NCBI GenBank assembly: GCA_963848295.1
Contig: CAWKDB010000010.1
Span: 4,064,001 to 4,128,000, forward strand
Source of the DNA: an uncultured delta proteobacterium
GTDB taxonomy: Bacteria; Myxococcota_A; Polyangia; Haliangiales; Haliangiaceae
DNA: 64,000 nt
Direction of reading: 5' to 3'
The notes under the pieces are model-generated. The model worked only from the letters and a program-made list of their open reading frames with translations. It made no database searches and was not told the origin of the DNA. Below, piece after piece: positions 2,098 through 18,601 of the stretch. A program made the translations under genes and the position numbers. How positions within the stretch are numbered: position 1 is the first letter of the stretch; every line of letters starts with the position of its first letter.

Positions 2098-2242
2098 TAC
2101 CGCCCACGCTACGCTATGTGGAGCCGCTTTTGGGTAGCGCACGGTGTGGACGGATCGGCAGCACACTCCGACGGAGATGTGGTCTCAGGGATACTCGTAA
2201 CGCCGCGAGGCGAGTCGACCCAGCTCGCGCGACTGAGCTAGG

Positions 2243-4822
2243 ATGCCTCGCGCCCCGATGCCGGATCGCACGCTCGTCGCCTCCGCCACGAACTTGTTGA
2301 CGCGAGGGTTCCTCGTCGTGCCCACCGACCGTGAGTCGCGCGCCGGCGACCCGGTCAACGCCCTGTTCTTCGTCGCGCGCGCGCTGCAGCGGGCGATCGC
2401 GTTCAAGCAACCGGCGCGCGCGGTCGCGGTGGTCGAGGCGAACCCCGATACCTCGAAGTGGCCGGCGATCCTCGTCGAGCAAGTCGCGCGGTTGCCCGAG
2501 CTGTGCGCGGCGTACGGCCTCGAGGTCGTCGCCACGACGGGCGAGGTTCACGCGGTCGCGAGCTACACACGCGCCGCGCTCGATGCCGGCGACGACGTCG
2601 TCGTGGTCGGGGTCGACAAGCGCTATGCGCAGCTCGTCGGCGACCGCGCGTGGTGGTACGACGCGGCGAAGGACGCGCGCTACACGCCGGAGATCGTGAT
2701 GAAGCGGTTCGGCGTGGCGCCCGACAAGGTCGCGGGCTGGCTCGGGCTCGTCGGGGACGAGGATGCACTGCCCGGTGTCAAAGGCATCGGCGCGAAAGGC
2801 GCGACGACGCTGGTCGAGACCTACGGTTCGATCGAAGGCGCGATCGCCGAGCTCTCGCGGATGGAGGGCCGGCTCGGCAAGGCGTTGCGCGCGGCCGGCG
2901 ACGATGTCGAGCGCGAGCTGGCGCGGGCGACGCTCGATCAGGCCGTGGCACTACCTCGGCCGCTCGCCGAGCTCGCCTACCGCGTGCCGGATGCCGCCGC
3001 GCTCAACCCGTTGCTCGATCATCTCGGCTTTGCCGAGCTGCTCGTCGCCGAGGGTGGCGCGATCCATGTCGAGGTCTGCGAGACCGGCGACGAGGTCGGA
3101 GCGGCGCTCGCCCGGATCGGCGGCGCCACCGTCTGCATCCACGCGGTGCTCGAAGATCCGGCGCCGGTGCGCAGTGCGCTCGTCGGCGTCGCGTTGACGA
3201 CAGGCGAGGGCAGCGCGTGCTACGTGCCGTGTGCGGCCGCCGGCTGGCCCGGGCTCGCGGCCTGGCTCGCGGATCCGAGCATGCCGAAGGTCGGCCACGA
3301 TCTGGTCGGGACGATGGTGGCGCTGCGGCGGCTCGGCGGTTCGCTCGCAGGTATCGCCGGCGATGCGATGTGCGCGTCACACCTCACGCAACCGAGCAAC
3401 TGGGCGCCGCACGATCTCACGCTCGTCGCGAAGCACGTGCTCGGGCGCGCGCTGCCCGATGTCGACGTCGTGCGCGGTGTCGGCCAGAAGCGCAAGGCCT
3501 GGGCGGCGCTGCCGGTCGAACGAACCGCGGACTTCGCCGCGCACTACGCCGACGCGGCGCTCCGCGTGTGGAACGAGCTCGCGCCCGGCGTCGATCGCGC
3601 CTTGCTCGCCGAGTACCTCGAGCTGTCCGAGGCGCTCGTGCGGATGGAGCTGACCGGGCTGATCGTCGATCCGGCCGAGCTCGACCACGCCGAGCGTGCG
3701 TTCGCCGCGATCGAAGCCGAGCTCACGCAACAGATCGAGGCGCTCGCCGGCCATGCGTTCAACATCAACTCGGGCAAGCAGCTCGGCACGGTGCTGTTCG
3801 AGGAGCTGAAGCTGCCGGTCGTCAGTCACACGAAGACCGGCTGGAGCACCGCGATCGAAGCGCTCGAGCGGATCGAGCACGCGCACCCGATCGTGGCGCT
3901 CGTGATTCGGTGGCGCCTGCTGCGCCGGTTGCGCGATAGCTGGGTGATCGCGCTGCGCCGCTGCATCGACGACGACGGCCGCGTGCATTCGCGATGTCAC
4001 CCGGCGCGCTCGTTCTCCGGCCACCTGATCAACACGAACCCGGACCTCGCGCGCGTGCCCGGCCGCACGCCCGAGATGAACATGATCCGCCGCGCGTTCA
4101 AGGCGGCGCCGGGCCGGCTGCTGATGTCGGTCGACTTCAACCAGCTCGGCCTGCACGTGCTCGCGCACCTGACGAAGGATCCGGCGCTCGTCGAGCCGCT
4201 GCGCCGGCGCGACGACATGCACGCGCTGACCGCCTCGGCGGTGCTCGACAAGCCGCTCGAGGCGATCACGGCCGACGATCGCCAGCTCGGCAAGGTCGTC
4301 AACTTCGCGACGTTCGCCGGGCAGGGCGCGAGCGCGCTCGCGCTGCAGCTCGGGGTCACCGCGCAGGAAGCGAAGGAGCTGATCGCGCGGTTCGATCGCC
4401 GCTACGCGTCGGTCCGCGCGTTCCAGGACGAGCAGCTGCGGCTCGCCCGCGAGCGCGGCTACATCGTGACGATCGCCGGCCGGCACTGGCCGATCGGCGG
4501 CCTCGAGTCGCTCGATCCGCACGATCGATCCTACGCCGAGCGGCTCGCTCGCCGCGCCACGCACGAAGGCTCGGTGTCCGACGTCTCGCGCCGCGCGCTG
4601 CTCGACGCCGATCGCGCGCTGCGCCGCGAAGGACTCGGCGCGGTGCCACTGCTGCAGATCCTCGACGAGGTGCTGTTCGACGTGCCCGAGGCCGAGCTCG
4701 CGGTCGCCGCGCGCGTCGCGTCGGAGGCGATGCGCCATGCGTTCGAGCTCGAAGTGCCGCTTGTCGTCGGCGTCGAAGTCGGTCGCAACTGGGCCGACCT
4801 CGAGCGGTTCACGGTCGCCTAA
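2243..4822 (+). CDS. polA: Divergent DNA polymerase I-like protein (family A, full three-domain layout, many conserved residues substituted); true start may be ATG 2258
   Basis: H3TH motif LVGDEDALPGVKGIGAKGA; thumb FNINSGKQLGTVLFEEL; motif A SVDFNQLGLHVLAHL; motif B RQLGKVVNF; motif C LLQILDEVLF; C-terminal LEVPLVVGVEVGRNW. Confidence 0.9.
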   Translation: MPRAPMPDRTLVASATNLLTRGFLVVPTDRESRAGDPVNALFFVARALQRAIAFKQPARAVAVVEANPDTSKWPAILVEQVARLPELCAAYGLEVVATTGEVHAVASYTRAALDAGDDVVVVGVDKRYAQLVGDRAWWYDAAKDARYTPEIVMKRFGVAPDKVAGWLGLVGDEDALPGVKGIGAKGATTLVETYGSIEGAIAELSRMEGRLGKALRAAGDDVERELARATLDQAVALPRPLAELAYRVPDAAALNPLLDHLGFAELLVAEGGAIHVEVCETGDEVGAALARIGGATVCIHAVLEDPAPVRSALVGVALTTGEGSACYVPCAAAGWPGLAAWLADPSMPKVGHDLVGTMVALRRLGGSLAGIAGDAMCASHLTQPSNWAPHDLTLVAKHVLGRALPDVDVVRGVGQKRKAWAALPVERTADFAAHYADAALRVWNELAPGVDRALLAEYLELSEALVRMELTGLIVDPAELDHAERAFAAIEAELTQQIEALAGHAFNINSGKQLGTVLFEELKLPVVSHTKTGWSTAIEALERIEHAHPIVALVIRWRLLRRLRDSWVIALRRCIDDDGRVHSRCHPARSFSGHLINTNPDLARVPGRTPEMNMIRRAFKAAPGRLLMSVDFNQLGLHVLAHLTKDPALVEPLRRRDDMHALTASAVLDKPLEAITADDRQLGKVVNFATFAGQGASALALQLGVTAQEAKELIARFDRRYASVRAFQDEQLRLARERGYIVTIAGRHWPIGGLESLDPHDRSYAERLARRATHEGSVSDVSRRALLDADRALRREGLGAVPLLQILDEVLFDVPEAELAVAARVASEAMRHAFELEVPLVVGVEVGRNWADLERFTVA

Positions 4823-5283: not shown

Positions 5284-6948
5284 CTAGCGGCGCTGCGCCG
5301 CGATCAGCTTCGTGTCCTCGTCGATCGGCTCGGCCCACGGATGCTCGCGCAGGATCGCGCGCGCGCGTTGGCGCAGCTCGTCGGGTAGGGCGGCGCGCTG
5401 GGCCTGTGCGAACGCGGTCGCGAGCTCGGCGGCAGTCTGGAACCGCAAATCGCGAGACTTCGCGAGCGCGATCGCGAGCACCGCTTCGAACGCGGGCGGC
5501 ACGCTCGTGATCGCGCCGGGCCGCAGCGGCATCTGGTGCACGACCATGTAGAGCACCGACGCCATGTCGCGCCCGGTGAAAGGCGCCTGACCGGTGAGGC
5601 TGCGATAGATCACGGCACCGAGCGCGTAGACGTCGGCGCGATGATCGACCTGATCACCCTTGGCTTGCTCCGGCGCCATGTACGCGGGCGTGCCGACCAC
5701 GCCGCCATGGGTGAGCGTGCCGCTGCCTTCGCCGAGCTGAGCGACGCCGAAATCGAGCAGCTTCCAGCCGGCGTCCTCGGTGAGAAATAGATTCTGCGGC
5801 TTGATATCGCGATGCACGATGCCGGCCTCGCGCGCGAGCTCGAGCACGCCGGCGATGTGCTCGACGAGGGTCTCGAGTCGCTGCGGTGACAGCCGCGCTT
5901 TCTTGCGCAGCAGATCGTTGAGCGGTTCGCCGCGCAAGCGCTCCATCGCGAGGAACGGTACCGGATCCTCCGGCGTCGACGCCTGCAGCACGCGCACGAC
6001 ATGCGGTGACTCGAGCGAGCTCGCCGCGCGGACCTCGCGCAAGAACCGTTCGACGTAATCGCGTGCGCCGAGCAGCTCGCGCCGCAACAGCTTGACCGCG
6101 CCAGGATCGCCGGTCGTCGTGTGCGTCGCTTCGTAGACCTCGCCCATCGCGCCGCGGCCGAGCACGTTGTCGAGCGCCCACGAGCCGACGACGTGGCCTG
6201 TGAACCGGCCGGGCCCGCCGATCTTCAACGCGCGATCGAGCTCGTGGCGCAGCTCGTTGACCTGCTCGGCGCGTTGCGCCGCGAGGCGCGTCGCCTCTTG
6301 CAGCTCGCTGATCGCTTCGAGCGAGGCGCGCCGTCCGTAGCGCGCCATCAGGAACCCGAGCACGTAGCCCCACTGCAACGTGAGCTGTCCCGCGATCTGC
6401 GCGGGGATCGACGTCGAGTGCCGCACCGGATACAGCCCCGGATCGTGGATCACCCCGGCGATCACGAGCCCGGCGACGAGCCCGTGGCCGCCAGCGGCGA
6501 GCACGTAGATCGCGGTCGCCGCCGCGATGCTCTCGGTCCGGCAGAAGAAGTACAGCCCGAGCACCGTGAACAACGGCGCGGCCGAGAACTGGCCGACGTA
6601 CAGGATGCCGAGCTGACCGCACAGCACGCACCACAACGCGAGCGCGGACAACTTGCGCGAGTCGAATCGATTCGGGTCGCGCAACTCGGCGTAGAGCCAG
6701 ACGCTCGCGAGCATGCCGATGCCGACGAGCGATAGCAGGACCGCCGCGATCCGGCGATCGCCGGGGATCGCGAGCGCGAGCACGAACACGCCGATGCCGA
6801 GGCCCCAGCCCATGCGCAGGAAAGCGCGCGTACGCTCGACCTCTTCAGTGCGCAGTGCATCGGTCGCGGTCGTCAGCGTCGTGCGCAGGTAGTGCGAGCC
6901 ACCCGCGGTCTGGCCCGGCTCGGTCGAGCCTGATTGGGTCGGGCTCAC
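5284..6948 (-). CDS. Ser/Thr protein kinase with N-terminal multi-TM region and C-terminal kinase domain (554 aa)
   Basis: GTG at 6948 overlaps the upstream TGA (GTGA); ~6 hydrophobic segments, then GRGAMGEVY, AVKLL, HRDIKPQN, DFG, GTPAYMAPE. Confidence 0.9.
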   Translation of the reverse strand: MSPTQSGSTEPGQTAGGSHYLRTTLTTATDALRTEEVERTRAFLRMGWGLGIGVFVLALAIPGDRRIAAVLLSLVGIGMLASVWLYAELRDPNRFDSRKLSALALWCVLCGQLGILYVGQFSAAPLFTVLGLYFFCRTESIAAATAIYVLAAGGHGLVAGLVIAGVIHDPGLYPVRHSTSIPAQIAGQLTLQWGYVLGFLMARYGRRASLEAISELQEATRLAAQRAEQVNELRHELDRALKIGGPGRFTGHVVGSWALDNVLGRGAMGEVYEATHTTTGDPGAVKLLRRELLGARDYVERFLREVRAASSLESPHVVRVLQASTPEDPVPFLAMERLRGEPLNDLLRKKARLSPQRLETLVEHIAGVLELAREAGIVHRDIKPQNLFLTEDAGWKLLDFGVAQLGEGSGTLTHGGVVGTPAYMAPEQAKGDQVDHRADVYALGAVIYRSLTGQAPFTGRDMASVLYMVVHQMPLRPGAITSVPPAFEAVLAIALAKSRDLRFQTAAELATAFAQAQRAALPDELRQRARAILREHPWAEPIDEDTKLIAAQRR

Positions 6949-8693
6949 GCGACCGCCTCCCACGGGTGCTTCGCGATCAACGCGTCGGCGCGCTTGCGCA
7001 GCTTTCCGTCGAGCTCGCCGGCGAGGGCGTGCGCGAACGCATCGGCGAGCGCGTGCCCGGTAGCCGAATCGATCGTCGGCGGACTTCGCGAGCGCGAGTG
7101 CGACCCAGCGATCGACATCCGCGCCGATCGGACCGAGCGCACCCGGGCGCGCTGGCATGCGGTGGACCACCGCATAGAGCAGCGCGGGCGTATCCGGCGC
7201 GGTGAACGGATGGCGCCCGGTCAGGCAGCGATACACGACCGCCGCGATCGCGTAGAGGTCGGCGCGCGCGTCGACCCGCTGGCCGCGCGCTTGCTCCGGC
7301 GCCATGTAGCTCGGCGTGCCGACGATCCCGCCCTGAGTCAACGTCCCGGAGTCGTCGGCGAGCGTCGCCACGCCGAAGTCGAGGATCTTCCAGCACGCGC
7401 CGCCGCGCTCGTCGCGAAACAGGTTCTGCGGCTTGAGATCGCGATGGACGATGCCCGCCGCGCTCGCGGCATCGACCCCCGCGCCGACGTGCTTGCACAG
7501 CTCGAGCACCTCCTCGGTCACGAGCCGGCTGTCTTGGCGAAGTAGATCCGCGAGCGTGTGACCGGTCAGCCGCTCCATCGCGAGGTACGGGACGCCGGCA
7601 TCGGGCGCCGCGGCTTCGAGCACGCGCACGACGTACGGCGACGCGAGCGCACCACTCGCTCTCGATTCGCGCAGGAACCGCGCGACGTGCGTCGGATCCG
7701 CGAGCAGCTCGCGGCGCAGCAGCTTGACCGCGGCGGGCTCGTTCGTGGTGGTCGTGGATCGCTTCGTAGACCTCGCCCATCGCACCTCGCCCGAGCACGT
7801 TGCCGAGCTTGAACGATCCGACGGTCTGATCGGTGTGACGGCCGGGACCGCCGACCCGCAGGGCTCGCTCGAGGTCGGCGCGTAGCTCGTCCATCAACGC
7901 CTTGCGCTGCGACGCGAGGCGAGTCGCGCGTTGCAGGCTCTCGATCGAGTGGCGCGACGCCCGGCGCAGCGCCCGCGCCGTGATGTACGCGAGCACGTAC
8001 GAGCCGAGCACGGCGATCGACGCGGCGGCGAGGGTCAGGCGTGACGTCGCGACATCGGTCGCGAACACGCCCGGATCGGCGATCACGCCGGCGACGATCA
8101 GGCCCGACGCGATCGCGTAAGACGTGAGGCCGGTGGCGAGCAGATAGCGCGCGGCGCGCTCGGCTTCGCTGCGCGCGGTGAAGTGAATGCCGACCACCAT
8201 GATCGCGGGCGCGGCGGAGTACACGCCGAAGAACAGGATCGCGACGTGCGCGTTGATGATCGCGAGCACGCCGAGCACGAGCAGCGCGCCCCTCGCCGTA
8301 GCGCGCCGGATCGGCGAACCGGCGCCAGAAGTAGAAGCTCATCACGATGCCCCACACCATCGCGGCGATGAACGCGATCGTCATCGCGCGCGGCGCCTCG
8401 ACGAACGGCACCGCACCCATCGCGCCGAGGCTCGCGAGCCAGCCGAGCGAGATGAACTGGCGAGTGCGCCGGACCTCGTCCTCGAGCAACGCGTCCGCCA
8501 TCGTCGTCAGCGACATCGACGAGCCGCGGGTCGCGCCGCTGACCTGCGCGGCCGATCGCTTGACCCGCTCGATCGGGCTGCGGGGCGGCGCCGGCGCGGG
8601 GTTCACCAGCCCGGGTCGATCGCCGACCGTCTCCCGGCTCTCGGTGGCGGCACGCGCAGGCCGGCCGTCATCGGTCGGAACGCGATCTGCCAT
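6945..8693 (-). pseudogene. Paralogous multi-TM Ser/Thr kinase interrupted by three +1 frameshifts (sequencing error or recent pseudogene)
   Basis: Pieces lie in ORFs 7566-8693, 6977-8278, 5284-7785 and 6945-7175. Removing one duplicated base near each of 8290, 7751 and 7065 gives a continuous protein with GRGAMGEVY, HRDLKPQN, DFG and APE. Confidence 0.8.
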
Positions 8694-8779: not shown

Positions 8780-9157
8780 TTAACACGCCTCGCCGTAACA
8801 CGCCGCTCCGCGAATCACGCGCCCGGAATCGTCGAGGGATAGCACTTCGGTGACCAAGCGCCGCGCGACGCTCCGGTAGTGGATGACGATCGAGCGAACG
8901 CCGGCATAGACGCCGAGTAACTCGAACCGGATCGGCGGCTGCATCCCGAGCGCCGGTCCCCAGTACGCGCGAATCGCCGCCTTGCCGCGCAACACGCCGC
9001 TCGGCTCGTTCATCCGCTCGATGATCACCGGCGACGCCATCTCGAAGTCATCGCTGTAGTGCGCGAGGATGCGCTCGAGATCGTGCGAGTTCCACGCGGC
9101 GACCCATTCGTCTGCGAACGCGCGCGCGGTGGCCATCGGGATGACAACGGACGACAT
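8780..9157 (-). CDS. SnoaL-like / NTF2-family protein
   Basis: FADEWVAAWNSHDLERILAHYSDD...LRGKAAIRAYW pattern. Confidence 0.9.
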   Translation of the reverse strand: MSSVVIPMATARAFADEWVAAWNSHDLERILAHYSDDFEMASPVIIERMNEPSGVLRGKAAIRAYWGPALGMQPPIRFELLGVYAGVRSIVIHYRSVARRLVTEVLSLDDSGRVIRGAACYGEAC

Positions 9158-9178
9158 CCCCGAGTCGTAGCGCGAATC

Positions 9179-9688
9179 TCAGTCGTTCTGCGCGCCTTGC
9201 GCGATCCAGCGCCGCACGATGTCGCGCGTGGTGACCGCGAGCGTGACCGCCGAATCCGACGGCATCGAGTGCATGCAGTCGCCGCCGGTGCACGCTTGCT
9301 CGAACATGCACTGATCGCCGTCGAGCTTGTGCATCAGATAGCTCATCGACGGATCGCCCGGGGTCACGAAGTTCATCGAGTGCAGCTCGCCGCTCGAGAT
9401 CGAGACGATCGAGGCGAACACCGTGCCCGAGTCCGACCCATTCGCGGTCGACGCGCCGAGGAACACGCTGCCGGTCGGGTTGTCCTGCGAACCGTGACAC
9501 GCGCTCGTCCCGCAGTTGTCGTTGAACACCTTCATCACGTCGGCTTGGAACGACACCGTCGGCGCCATCAAGTCGGTCGACGTCGGCACCGCGTACTCGA
9601 CGCACGGCCCGGCATCCGGAGTCCACACCGGCGGATCGGTGCCGCACGCGCCGGTGATCAGCGCGAGCGCGAGCGCGGGCCGAAGCAT
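9179..9688 (-). CDS. Lipoprotein with CX4CH motif (putative c-type cytochrome)
   Basis: Lipobox ITGAC; CGTSACH; VTPGDPSMSYLMHKL..MP..IVRRWIAQGA resembles a planctomycete-type cytochrome c. Confidence 0.75.
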   Translation of the reverse strand: MLRPALALALITGACGTDPPVWTPDAGPCVEYAVPTSTDLMAPTVSFQADVMKVFNDNCGTSACHGSQDNPTGSVFLGASTANGSDSGTVFASIVSISSGELHSMNFVTPGDPSMSYLMHKLDGDQCMFEQACTGGDCMHSMPSDSAVTLAVTTRDIVRRWIAQGAQND

Positions 9689-17383: not shown

Positions 17384-18601
17384 GTGGCGCGCACGATGTG
17401 CAACCGGTGCCGGCGGCCGGAGACCGTGTGTTACTGCGCGGCGCTGCCTCGGCTCGAGACGACGACGCGGATCGTGATCCTGCAACATCCGCGCGAGCGC
17501 GACATGCCGATCGGCACGGCGCGGATGACGATGTTGAGCGTCGCGAACGCGTCGCTGCGCGTCGGCATGACGTGGACGCGCGACGAGCTTGGCGACGTGC
17601 TCGATGATCCGGCGCGACCTGCGATCTTGCTCGCGCCCGGCCCCGACGCGCGCGACATCCTCCGCGATCCGCCGGCCGGGCCGGTCACGCTGATCGTCGT
17701 CGACGGCACGTGGGCACAGGCGCGCAGCCTGCTCAATCGCAACCCGTTGCTCCAGACGTTGCCGCGCTACGCGTTCACGGCGCCCGAACCGTCGCGGTAT
17801 CGGATCCGGCGCGAGCCGAAGCCGGAGTACGTCTCGACGATCGAAGCGGTGATGCACGTGCTCGGCGCGCTAGAAGGCGATCCCGAGATCGCGCGTGCGT
17901 TGCTCGATCCGCTCGATGCGATGGTCGATGCGCAGCTGCATTGCCAGGCGATCGCGCCGCGACGGTCGTCGTATCGCCGGCCGCGCGGACCGAAACCGCC
18001 GGCGCCGTCGCGCGTGCCGCGCGCGATCGCGAGCCGGTTCGGCGATGTGGTGTGCGTCGTCGGCGAGGCGAACGCGTGGGCGTACACGCGCGGCAAGCCC
18101 CGGCTCGACGGAACCGCACCGCCATTCGGCGGTGCTGCCGGCCGGGTGCGGGCCCCGGCCGTCGGCGAGCTCGTCCATTGGGTCGCGCACCGCCCGAGCA
18201 CGGGCGAGACGTTCGAGCGCGTGATGGCTCCCGCCGGCGAGCTGTCGCCGAATACGCCGTTTCATATCGAGCTCGACGAGGCGCGACTGCGCGCCGGAAG
18301 TGCACGCGCGGACATGGTCAGCGAGTTCTCGCGGTTCTTGCGCCCGCGTGACGTCGTGTGCGCGTGGGGCCACTACCCGCATGCGTTGTTCATCGCGAAC
18401 GGTGGCGCGCCGTTCGCCGAGCCGCTCGATCTCCGCGCGGCGGCGCAACGCATCGCGAACCGCAAGATCGGCACGCTCGAGGCGTTCGCCGCGACGCTGG
18501 CGGCAACGCCGCCCGCGCCGATCGCGCTCGGTCGCGCCGGCCGCCGGCTCGCGATGCTCGTCGAGATCGTGCGCGATTGGCATCGCGCCGCGTCTACGTG
18601 A
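17384..18601 (+). CDS. DTW-domain protein (tRNA acp3U aminocarboxypropyltransferase family) fused to a degenerate DEDD-exonuclease-like domain
   Basis: CNRCRRPETVCYC zinc motif, ILQHPRE, LIVVDGTW, YRIRREP..STIEA; extra ~190-aa C-terminal domain. Confidence 0.85.
   Translation: MARTMCNRCRRPETVCYCAALPRLETTTRIVILQHPRERDMPIGTARMTMLSVANASLRVGMTWTRDELGDVLDDPARPAILLAPGPDARDILRDPPAGPVTLIVVDGTWAQARSLLNRNPLLQTLPRYAFTAPEPSRYRIRREPKPEYVSTIEAVMHVLGALEGDPEIARALLDPLDAMVDAQLHCQAIAPRRSSYRRPRGPKPPAPSRVPRAIASRFGDVVCVVGEANAWAYTRGKPRLDGTAPPFGGAAGRVRAPAVGELVHWVAHRPSTGETFERVMAPAGELSPNTPFHIELDEARLRAGSARADMVSEFSRFLRPRDVVCAWGHYPHALFIANGGAPFAEPLDLRAAAQRIANRKIGTLEAFAATLAATPPAPIALGRAGRRLAMLVEIVRDWHRAAST

Follow-up and report, generated by a model that had tools for sequence, protein, structure and literature searches.

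An apparently undescribed, selected DNA polymerase I variant of Myxococcota with conserved catalytic residues and a rewired active site

The genome of an uncultured myxococcotal bacterium (assembly GCA_963848295.1) carries, in a 64,000-nucleotide stretch of contig CAWKDB010000010.1 that we call the window (positions 4,064,001 to 4,128,000), a paralogue of polA, the gene for DNA polymerase I (Pol I), whose product retains the residues of catalysis but has replaced the steric gate and the residues that read the nascent base pair. This gene and its relatives apparently constitute a real, selected and previously undescribed variant of Pol I, referred to below as the rewired clade. We tentatively favor the reading that the encoded protein is an accessory Pol I offshoot that would act as a ribonucleotide-accepting transferase on DNA 3' ends, the base being chosen either by nothing or by the enzyme's own Arg/Glu pair.

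An original prediction, made by eye, had described the gene as an intact 859-residue open reading frame, and the frame is indeed unbroken from 2243 to 4822 on the forward strand. Residues are numbered from ATG 2243 unless E. coli or M. smegmatis numbering is stated. Alignment of the query with E. coli K-12 PolA from RefSeq confirms the residue pairs that had been proposed, both those retained (E. coli first: D705-D631, H734-H660, R754-R680, K758-K684, F762-F688 and D882/E883-D808/E809) and those changed (E710-G636, Y766-A692, R668-H594, N675-D601, Q677-A603, N678-R604, N845-R771, Q849-E775 and H881-L807). The canonical residues E710, Y766, N845 and Q849 have become G, A or N, R and E in all members examined. 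The three base-pair readers, Y766, N845 and Q849, are retained in 22/22 canonical proteins (one with F for Y766) and in all 13 proteins of clade A, a second full-length Pol I of Myxococcota that occurs beside canonical polA. In the Klenow fragment, fidelity is shaped by Y766, R668, E710, N845 and Q849 (PMC10520511; papers cited by such identifiers are drawn on here for part of their text). Helix Q, which bears R771 and E775, is a single helix in the AlphaFold2 model (754-790 in model numbering), and these residues form a candidate Arg/Glu pair beneath the nascent base pair. F591, which stands in place of E. coli A665, sits at a template-backbone contact, and the 13 clade A proteins carry A or V there.

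The replacements are fixed across homologues gathered in different ways. The close set comprises 121 homologues. The full-length set holds 76 genes from GTDB genomes, of 78 extracted from 81 loci, and was gathered with short query peptide patterns, which biases it toward conservation; a distant set of 68 proteins, gathered from the most divergent member and 46-76% identical to the query, provides the fairer test. G636, A692, R771 and E775 are invariant in the first two sets (121/121 and 76/76), and in the distant set G636, R771 and E775 occur in 68/68 while position 692 holds Ala in 63 proteins and Asn in 5. The residues D631, Q634, H660, R680, K684, F688 and D808 are present throughout (121/121, 76/76 and 68/68), E809 in 120/121, 76/76 and 67/68, and D658, which positions R680, is fixed. 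Among the new residues, R589, S590 and F591 are likewise universal (121/121, 76/76, 68/68), and W567, R589, S590, F591, G636, F691, R771, E775, V778 and R783 are each found in all 68 distant proteins.

For the 12 closest pairs of full-length genes, the ratio of nonsynonymous to synonymous substitution (dN/dS) falls at 0.06-0.16; its median against the query is 0.27 for the polymerase domain and, with synonymous sites nearly saturated, 0.41 for the FEN domain and 0.47 for the 3'-5' exonuclease (exo) domain. The rewired gene is under purifying selection and is not a decaying copy. The argument that such selective change does not look like random decay is thus upheld by the replacements fixed in all three sets, and the check for purifying selection that had been proposed gave a dN/dS far below 1. 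The list of lost template-reading residues stands for Y766, N845 and Q849 but overstated the case: R668 and H881 are secondary, being retained in most distant members. Position 668 is H, Q or E in the query's subgroup, H774 varies in the distant set, and R668, H881 and H774 lie outside the core change. The substitutions N675D and N678R are real but are no part of the rewiring, since intact clade A already has them. A deep rewired subgroup (P0128, P0274-P0277) has NFATFNG, with Asn at Y766, and RRAAIEG for RRATHEG, and it might differ in base preference.

Clade A supplies the background from which the rewired gene arose. Its motifs are DPDLQRTP, DWSQIELR and NFATIYGQG, and in 13/13 proteins the nine FEN acids, E710, Y766, R668, N845, Q849 and H881 are intact, with N675D, N678R, G763A and L764T already in place (13/13); a PH motif in the exo domain is common to clade A and the rewired clade. 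In a polymerase-domain tree, the rewired clade nests within clade A, and the two together are separated from canonical Pol I with a support of 100. An origin from the host's own canonical polA was rejected (p-AU 0.0005 in a quick tree, with a long branch in play). The stem of the rewired clade is long, at 1.19 changes per column in the quick tree, and the branches after it are short, a pattern that would fit a change of function. Together with the fixed substitutions, the low dN/dS and a canonical polA elsewhere in the genome, it supports the neofunctionalization that had been suggested. The sister of the rewired clade (support 98) is P0133, a metagenomic protein that has a decayed FEN domain, R668 changed to H, and VPGRT, with E710, Y766, N845 and Q849 intact; it is a possible evolutionary intermediate. 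Because P0133 combines a decayed FEN domain with intact E710, Y766, N845 and Q849, this one sequence suggests that the nuclease was lost before the active site was rewired.

Clade A loci (L031:8439-10994 and L157-L168; 18 motif-checked loci plus L031) come from genomes across the phylum. At 3/13 of them a divergent PolX-PHP gene, with a palm domain that has no Pfam match, adjoins the clade A polA or lies within 3 kb of it. In the PolA proteins P0152, P0188, P0210, P0231, P0244, P0270, P0217 and L065, the steric gate carries Asp where Glu is expected (QIDLR, QLDLR), in a site otherwise largely intact.

The rewired copy is an accessory gene. The canonical polA whose presence had been named as a check lies on contig C11 of the host genome (31% identity, every motif intact), and contig C10 has a stand-alone FEN-like gene. 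Four of five genomes checked hold canonical, clade A and rewired copies, and the fifth canonical and rewired; the cultured Labilithrix luteola DSM 27648, which carries the rewired polA (A0A0K1PJB3 / WP_146645358.1), and two single-contig genomes each also have a higher-scoring PolA, judged by score alone. In the complete or near-complete genomes checked, the rewired copy was never the sole polA. Among genomes of the host family at least 85% complete, where absence means 'not found', the clade was present in 72/118, comprising the host, 63/76 others of its genus and 8/41 of other genera; the 118 include the unpublished G010 and G476, on which alone no claim rests. Sampling across the phylum recovered it in 12/401 genomes. 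Scanning GTDB genomes yielded 182 confirmed stretches, and the 80 retained include Kofleriaceae, Polyangiaceae, Myxococcaceae and Archangium records as well as L. luteola. Over the polymerase half, the best 120 of 1206 protein-search matches at E<=1e-50 (8000 candidates) show 78-95% identity, and most of those named by taxon are Kofleriaceae or Myxococcales.

A search of 1.84 billion cluster representatives placed 14 rewired proteins in its best 150 (several of them fragments or frameshifted); the other 136 had an intact or near-intact site, and no second independent rewiring was seen among these 150. The ESM Atlas, entered via homologue P0015, returned only clusters of the 'DNA polymerase I family', the top one having 242 members, most commonly Myxococcota. 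No sign of a phage or plasmid origin was found: a pattern scan of IMG/VR found no relative, and there was no close plasmid copy (best 39%).

The 859-residue frame has Pfam matches to a 5'-3' exonuclease, a vestigial 3'-5' exonuclease and DNA_pol_A, and its PF00476 score of 315 bits against a cut-off of 34 marks a family A polymerase fold. The AlphaFold2 model (predicted local distance difference test, pLDDT, 92.3; predicted TM-score, pTM, 0.86) matches Bacillus Pol I large-fragment chains with TM-scores of 0.88-0.91 (by target length), and by this model the Pol I fold is whole. Translation likely begins at ATG 2258 rather than 2243, judging from the homologue starts, which match the equivalent of ATG 2258, and from a TANNNT box at 2239-2244. 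Such a box lies 5-16 nt ahead of the start in 40/75 family genes, against 0-2/75 in five control windows further upstream, and its recurrence at this distance makes it likely that the rewired gene is transcribed from a promoter of its own, with a very short leader; a generic sigma-70 scan did not call the TAGGAT hexamer. Besides this box, no conserved RNA or operator was seen up- or downstream by eye or in k-mer counts (no Rfam search was run). The GC content at third codon positions (GC3) is 0.91.

To follow the DNA through the protein, contacts of M. smegmatis Pol1 (PMC7102940) were transferred to the query by alignment and counted. The query retains 6/6 primer-phosphate side chains, 3/3 upstream thumb template contacts and 8/8 triphosphate and metal ligands, as well as R820 (= R767). 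Of the five side chains that contact the template next to the active site it lacks four, S648, S748, Y750 and R802, and Phe stands in place of A643. The R802 position, W749 in the query, is W in 76/76 full-length genes, 67/68 distant proteins and 4/7 of the most distant genome loci (Q in 3); it is R in 13/13 clade A and 18/22 canonical proteins, E. coli itself having Leu. The 5' nuclease is predicted to be dead because all eight FEN acids are essential and the D130A-D155A mutant (= E. coli D115, D140) has no nuclease activity (PMC7102940); in place of a canonical active FEN, the query has a domain with 3/8 of these acids lost and the arch deleted. Within this domain, D125-K-R, WW.D..K..RY and the helix-3-turn-helix (H3TH) glycines are fixed in the 76 full-length genes, and the vestigial exo domain carries a conserved SHL..PSNWAPHDL motif. 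The predicted dead nuclease, the ARSF motif, the change of R802 to W and the origin from intact clade A all lie outside the original prediction.

If the protein works as we tentatively propose, the intact thumb would grip the end of a DNA duplex, and one or a few ribonucleotides would be added to the 3'-OH without ordinary Watson-Crick template reading. Gly at position 710 would let the 2'-OH in, and the joint loss of E710 and Y766 would open a cavity beneath the nascent pair, where R771, held in place by E775 from one turn along the helix, could select or steady the incoming base. F591 and W749 may disfavor the usual template path, and the dead FEN domain might clamp the DNA a second time, on the downstream side of a nick, gap or break. 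Such an enzyme would serve repair by processing ends or lesions, for instance blunt or damaged ends and abasic sites, much as the LigD polymerase or Rev1 does. The LigD polymerase prefers ribonucleoside triphosphates (rNTPs). A more specific form of this proposal, which we consider unlikely, is a protein-templated ribonucleotide transferase in which Arg771/Glu775 would pick a single rNTP and the product would mark or mend DNA breaks, nicks or lesions gripped by the thumb and the dead FEN domain.

Precedents exist for the separate elements of the proposal. Taq E615G, part of rNTP-accepting variants in which the lost E615 normally bonds Y671 (Y766), and Pol theta E2335G, which shows strong template-free synthesis of long RNA, have the identical Glu-to-Gly change at the steric gate (PMC6158600); unlike the rewired clade, which is natural, selected and carries more changes, they are laboratory mutants that retain the equivalents of Y766, N845 and Q849. 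In Rev1, a Y-family polymerase, an arginine serves in place of the template base (10.1101/2021.12.01.470840), which makes it a possible functional analogue. R771 and E775 are fixed in the right part of the site for such pairing, but the likeness is conjecture: Rev1 belongs to an unrelated family, is dCTP-specific and rNTP-excluding, and arginine templating has been demonstrated there.

Several observations weigh against our proposal. The template strand is probably still bound, since R841, a template-phosphate contact, is fixed and R668 and H881 persist in 48/68 and 38/68 distant members. Three of the four lost contacts (S648, S748 and Y750) are already gone in clade A, whose base-pair readers are all intact, and only R802 to W and A643 to F are specific to the rewired clade. 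Where R771, E775 and F591 sit with respect to DNA is, moreover, borrowed from Pol I structures. No conserved neighbor points to repair, whether in 15 loci followed up to 23 kb or in 81 loci up to 13 kb; Ku is near-universal in the host family (110/118 genomes), the 8 genomes without it also being without the rewired gene; and ku lay within 2 kb in only 1 carrier locus seen and in no other carrier locus examined.

That one carrier (L213) has ku and ligD 1-7 kb downstream. Across the host family, Ku occurs in all 72 carriers versus 38/46 non-carriers, and within the host genus at least two Ku matches are found in 41/63 carriers versus 2/13 non-carriers; kinship, and possibly genome size too, inflates the significance implied by the nominal p-values of 0.0004 and 0.0015. 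We regard this co-occurrence as a weak hint toward end repair and not as evidence of a repair role. The neighbor clusters that do recur, two-component proteins (15 loci) and Ser/Thr kinases (12), are scattered and common in these genomes.

The main rival, which we place on the unlikely side, is a templated, low-fidelity polymerase that would read its template, prefer rNTPs and lay down ribonucleotide patches, with R771/E775 rebuilding the R668-E710-Q849 network. It gains from the same fixed R841 and frequent R668 and H881, from the upstream template contacts that are retained, and from the possibility that E710G and Q849E, as a charge swap, could re-anchor R668. Single-subunit RNA polymerases such as T7 RNA polymerase have Gly at the steric-gate position, but T7 RNA polymerase retains the Y766 equivalent. 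The wholesale replacement of Y766, N845 and Q849, which canonical and clade A proteins retain, also argues against it, as do the dispensability of R668 in the query's subgroup and the bulky F591 fixed at the template backbone. Mycobacterial DinB2, a templated Y-family enzyme of an unrelated fold, offers a precedent for natural steric-gate loss with ribonucleotide use in repair (PMC4176160).

It is distinctly unlikely that the same two-metal chemistry serves another reaction or acceptor, such as pyrophosphorolytic removal of blocked or ribonucleotide 3' ends, capping of ends with one nucleotide or cofactor, nucleotidylation of RNA or protein, or synthesis of a small signaling nucleotide. The enlarged sugar and base pocket (G636, A692) and the new fixed charges would suit a non-standard nucleotide, and the lack of a repair setting at the examined loci and the patchy accessory spread, from most host-genus genomes to few of other genera, are consistent with such a role; against it, the strict conservation of the duplex-gripping thumb and H3TH points to a duplex nucleic-acid substrate, and there is no co-travelling partner gene. 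Improbable also is a catalytically silent scaffold that binds DNA ends or senses NTPs in the manner of ImuB. Both nuclease domains are predicted to be dead, as such a scaffold would have it. Klenow mutations at several of the replaced positions affect rate. Single mutations at several of them impair fidelity (PMC10520511). Against the scaffold, ImuB-type proteins lose their catalytic acids (PMC12926913), whereas the rewired clade has every metal and triphosphate ligand fixed, and D658 as well. It is barely credible that the gene is a spare Pol I of the ordinary kind, a duplicate in decay or an artefact of assembly: the databases do call the protein 'DNA polymerase I' and the fold is that of Pol I, but it scores beneath the NCBIfam Pol I equivalog cut-offs (NF004397, 528 vs 720 bits; TIGR00593, 436 vs 600 bits), and decay and artefact are refuted by replacements fixed in independent genomes and a cultured strain (the 76 and 68 sets) and by dN/dS.

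With bacterial Pol I (PolA1, cluster 1; cd08637) the rewired clade shares the FEN/exo/polymerase layout, the fold, the metal and triphosphate ligands and the thumb contacts; unlike it, the rewired clade has the Gly gate, replaced Y766/N845/Q849, the ARSF motif and the depleted FEN domain. Clade A, the parent group, shares N675D, N678R, G763A, L764T and the exo PH motif but retains E710, Y766, R668, N845, Q849, H881 and the FEN acids. The APEX/PolA2 polymerases of Actinobacteria and CHEAP/PolA3 are likewise chromosomal family-A polymerases that accompany canonical Pol I as accessories, but they are described as having no FEN domain, intact polymerase motifs and ordinary primer extension (PMC10201439, PMC12926913). 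The query differs from APEX/PolA2 in its myxococcotal host, its FEN-like domain and the lack of Q..LF (the beta-clamp QxxLF), and the two best PRK14975 models score 109-154 bits against cut-offs of 640-871. From PolA3 and phage PolA (DpoZ and others) it is set apart by the lost exo acids, the lack of a relative in the IMG/VR pattern scan and the lack of a close plasmid copy, and from ImuB-like proteins by its fixed catalytic acids and the lack of conserved neighbors, where an imuA/dnaE2 operon would be expected.

A full-text literature search, outside which most subscription journals lie, found no description of the rewired clade. In the part of PMC10201439 drawn on, none of the 19 family-A clusters has a rewired active site and 'myxo' is absent from the main text; its dataset holds the L. 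luteola protein, unlabelled, as 'DNA polymerase I', and conserved catalytic residues are taken there to imply that every family-A subfamily is a functional polymerase. The part of PMC12926913 compared, to which the family-A supplement sheet does not belong, lists only PolA1, PolA1-like, PolA2 and PolA3, and its genome list includes Labilithrix. Clade A is unnamed in these parts of both surveys.

Table 1. Coordinates of the rewired polA gene, its sites in the window, and related features at other loci
Feature	Position	Strand	Remark
TAGGAT, -10-like hexamer, 13 nt before ATG 2258	2239..2244	+	TANNNT enrichment across family genes
Rewired PolA paralogue gene	2258..4822	+	854 aa from ATG 2258 (likely start); 859 aa from ATG 2243
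FEN-like 5' nuclease domain	2267..3046	+	13-aa helical arch deleted; D13 to S, D115 to V, D140 to R; H3TH glycines retained
Vestigial 3'-5' exonuclease domain	3065..3592	+	DEDDy acids gone (H300, V302, T357, F431, Y435)
Thumb	3761..3928	+	N507, S510, Q513, T530, T532, S535, T536, R558, R562 retained (duplex grip)
ARSF motif, A588-F591	4004..4015	+	replaces A-V-T-A ahead of TGR
Motif A, D631-F-N-Q-L-G636	4133..4150	+	catalytic Asp retained; steric-gate Glu to Gly
Motif B / O helix	4280..4321	+	R680..K684..F688 retained; Y766 to A692 (NFATFAG)
W749 for template-phosphate arginine (M. smegmatis R802)	4487..4489	+	from alignment counts
Helix Q, R767-LA-R770-R771-A-T-H774-E775-GS-V778..R783	4541..4591	+	N845 to R771, Q849 to E775
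Motif C, D808-E809	4664..4669	+	retained; preceding H881 position variable (L, V, H)
tRNA-Leu(TAG)	L146:4188-4271, L152:1643-1725, L154:4227-4309		
PolX-PHP gene near clade A polA	L162:10463-12127, L166:12025-13719, L167:5154-6752		3/13 loci

Some features of the surroundings deserve record. At L146 and L154 the rewired gene is closely preceded by tRNA-Leu(TAG), the last gene of a six-tRNA cluster, and L152 has the same cluster upstream, which suggests that the gene was inserted at a tRNA site. The host ku (L216, about 8947-9475; G000:C11:598946-599474) was matched as two overlapping pieces in different frames, a split caused by a frameshift or an assembly error, and it adjoins an Fpg-like and a ligase-like gene. 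In the window, a membrane Ser/Thr kinase region at 5284-8693 on the reverse strand has two kinase domains over the overlapping frames 5284-7785, 6977-8278 and 7566-8693 and looks frameshifted, perhaps through assembly errors. The gene at 17384-18601 on the forward strand encodes a member of the tRNA aminocarboxypropyl transferase family, a DTW-domain protein extended at its C terminus by about 200 aa that have no Pfam match.

The rewired clade is a selected natural lineage in which the chemistry of Pol I has been retained and the steric-gate and base-pair-reading residues replaced, and its intact parent, clade A, together with the possible intermediate P0133, lets the evolutionary steps be ordered. 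The cultured carrier L. luteola DSM 27648 makes the enzyme directly testable. The likely activity proposed here, ribonucleotide addition at DNA ends that bypasses the normal reading of a template, is one that the literature searched does not describe for family A, and it could reveal a new route for ribonucleotides into bacterial DNA. The clade may also supply from nature a Pol I-type scaffold of the sort that is engineered today, through the same Glu-to-Gly change, for template-free synthesis or synthesis with modified nucleotides.

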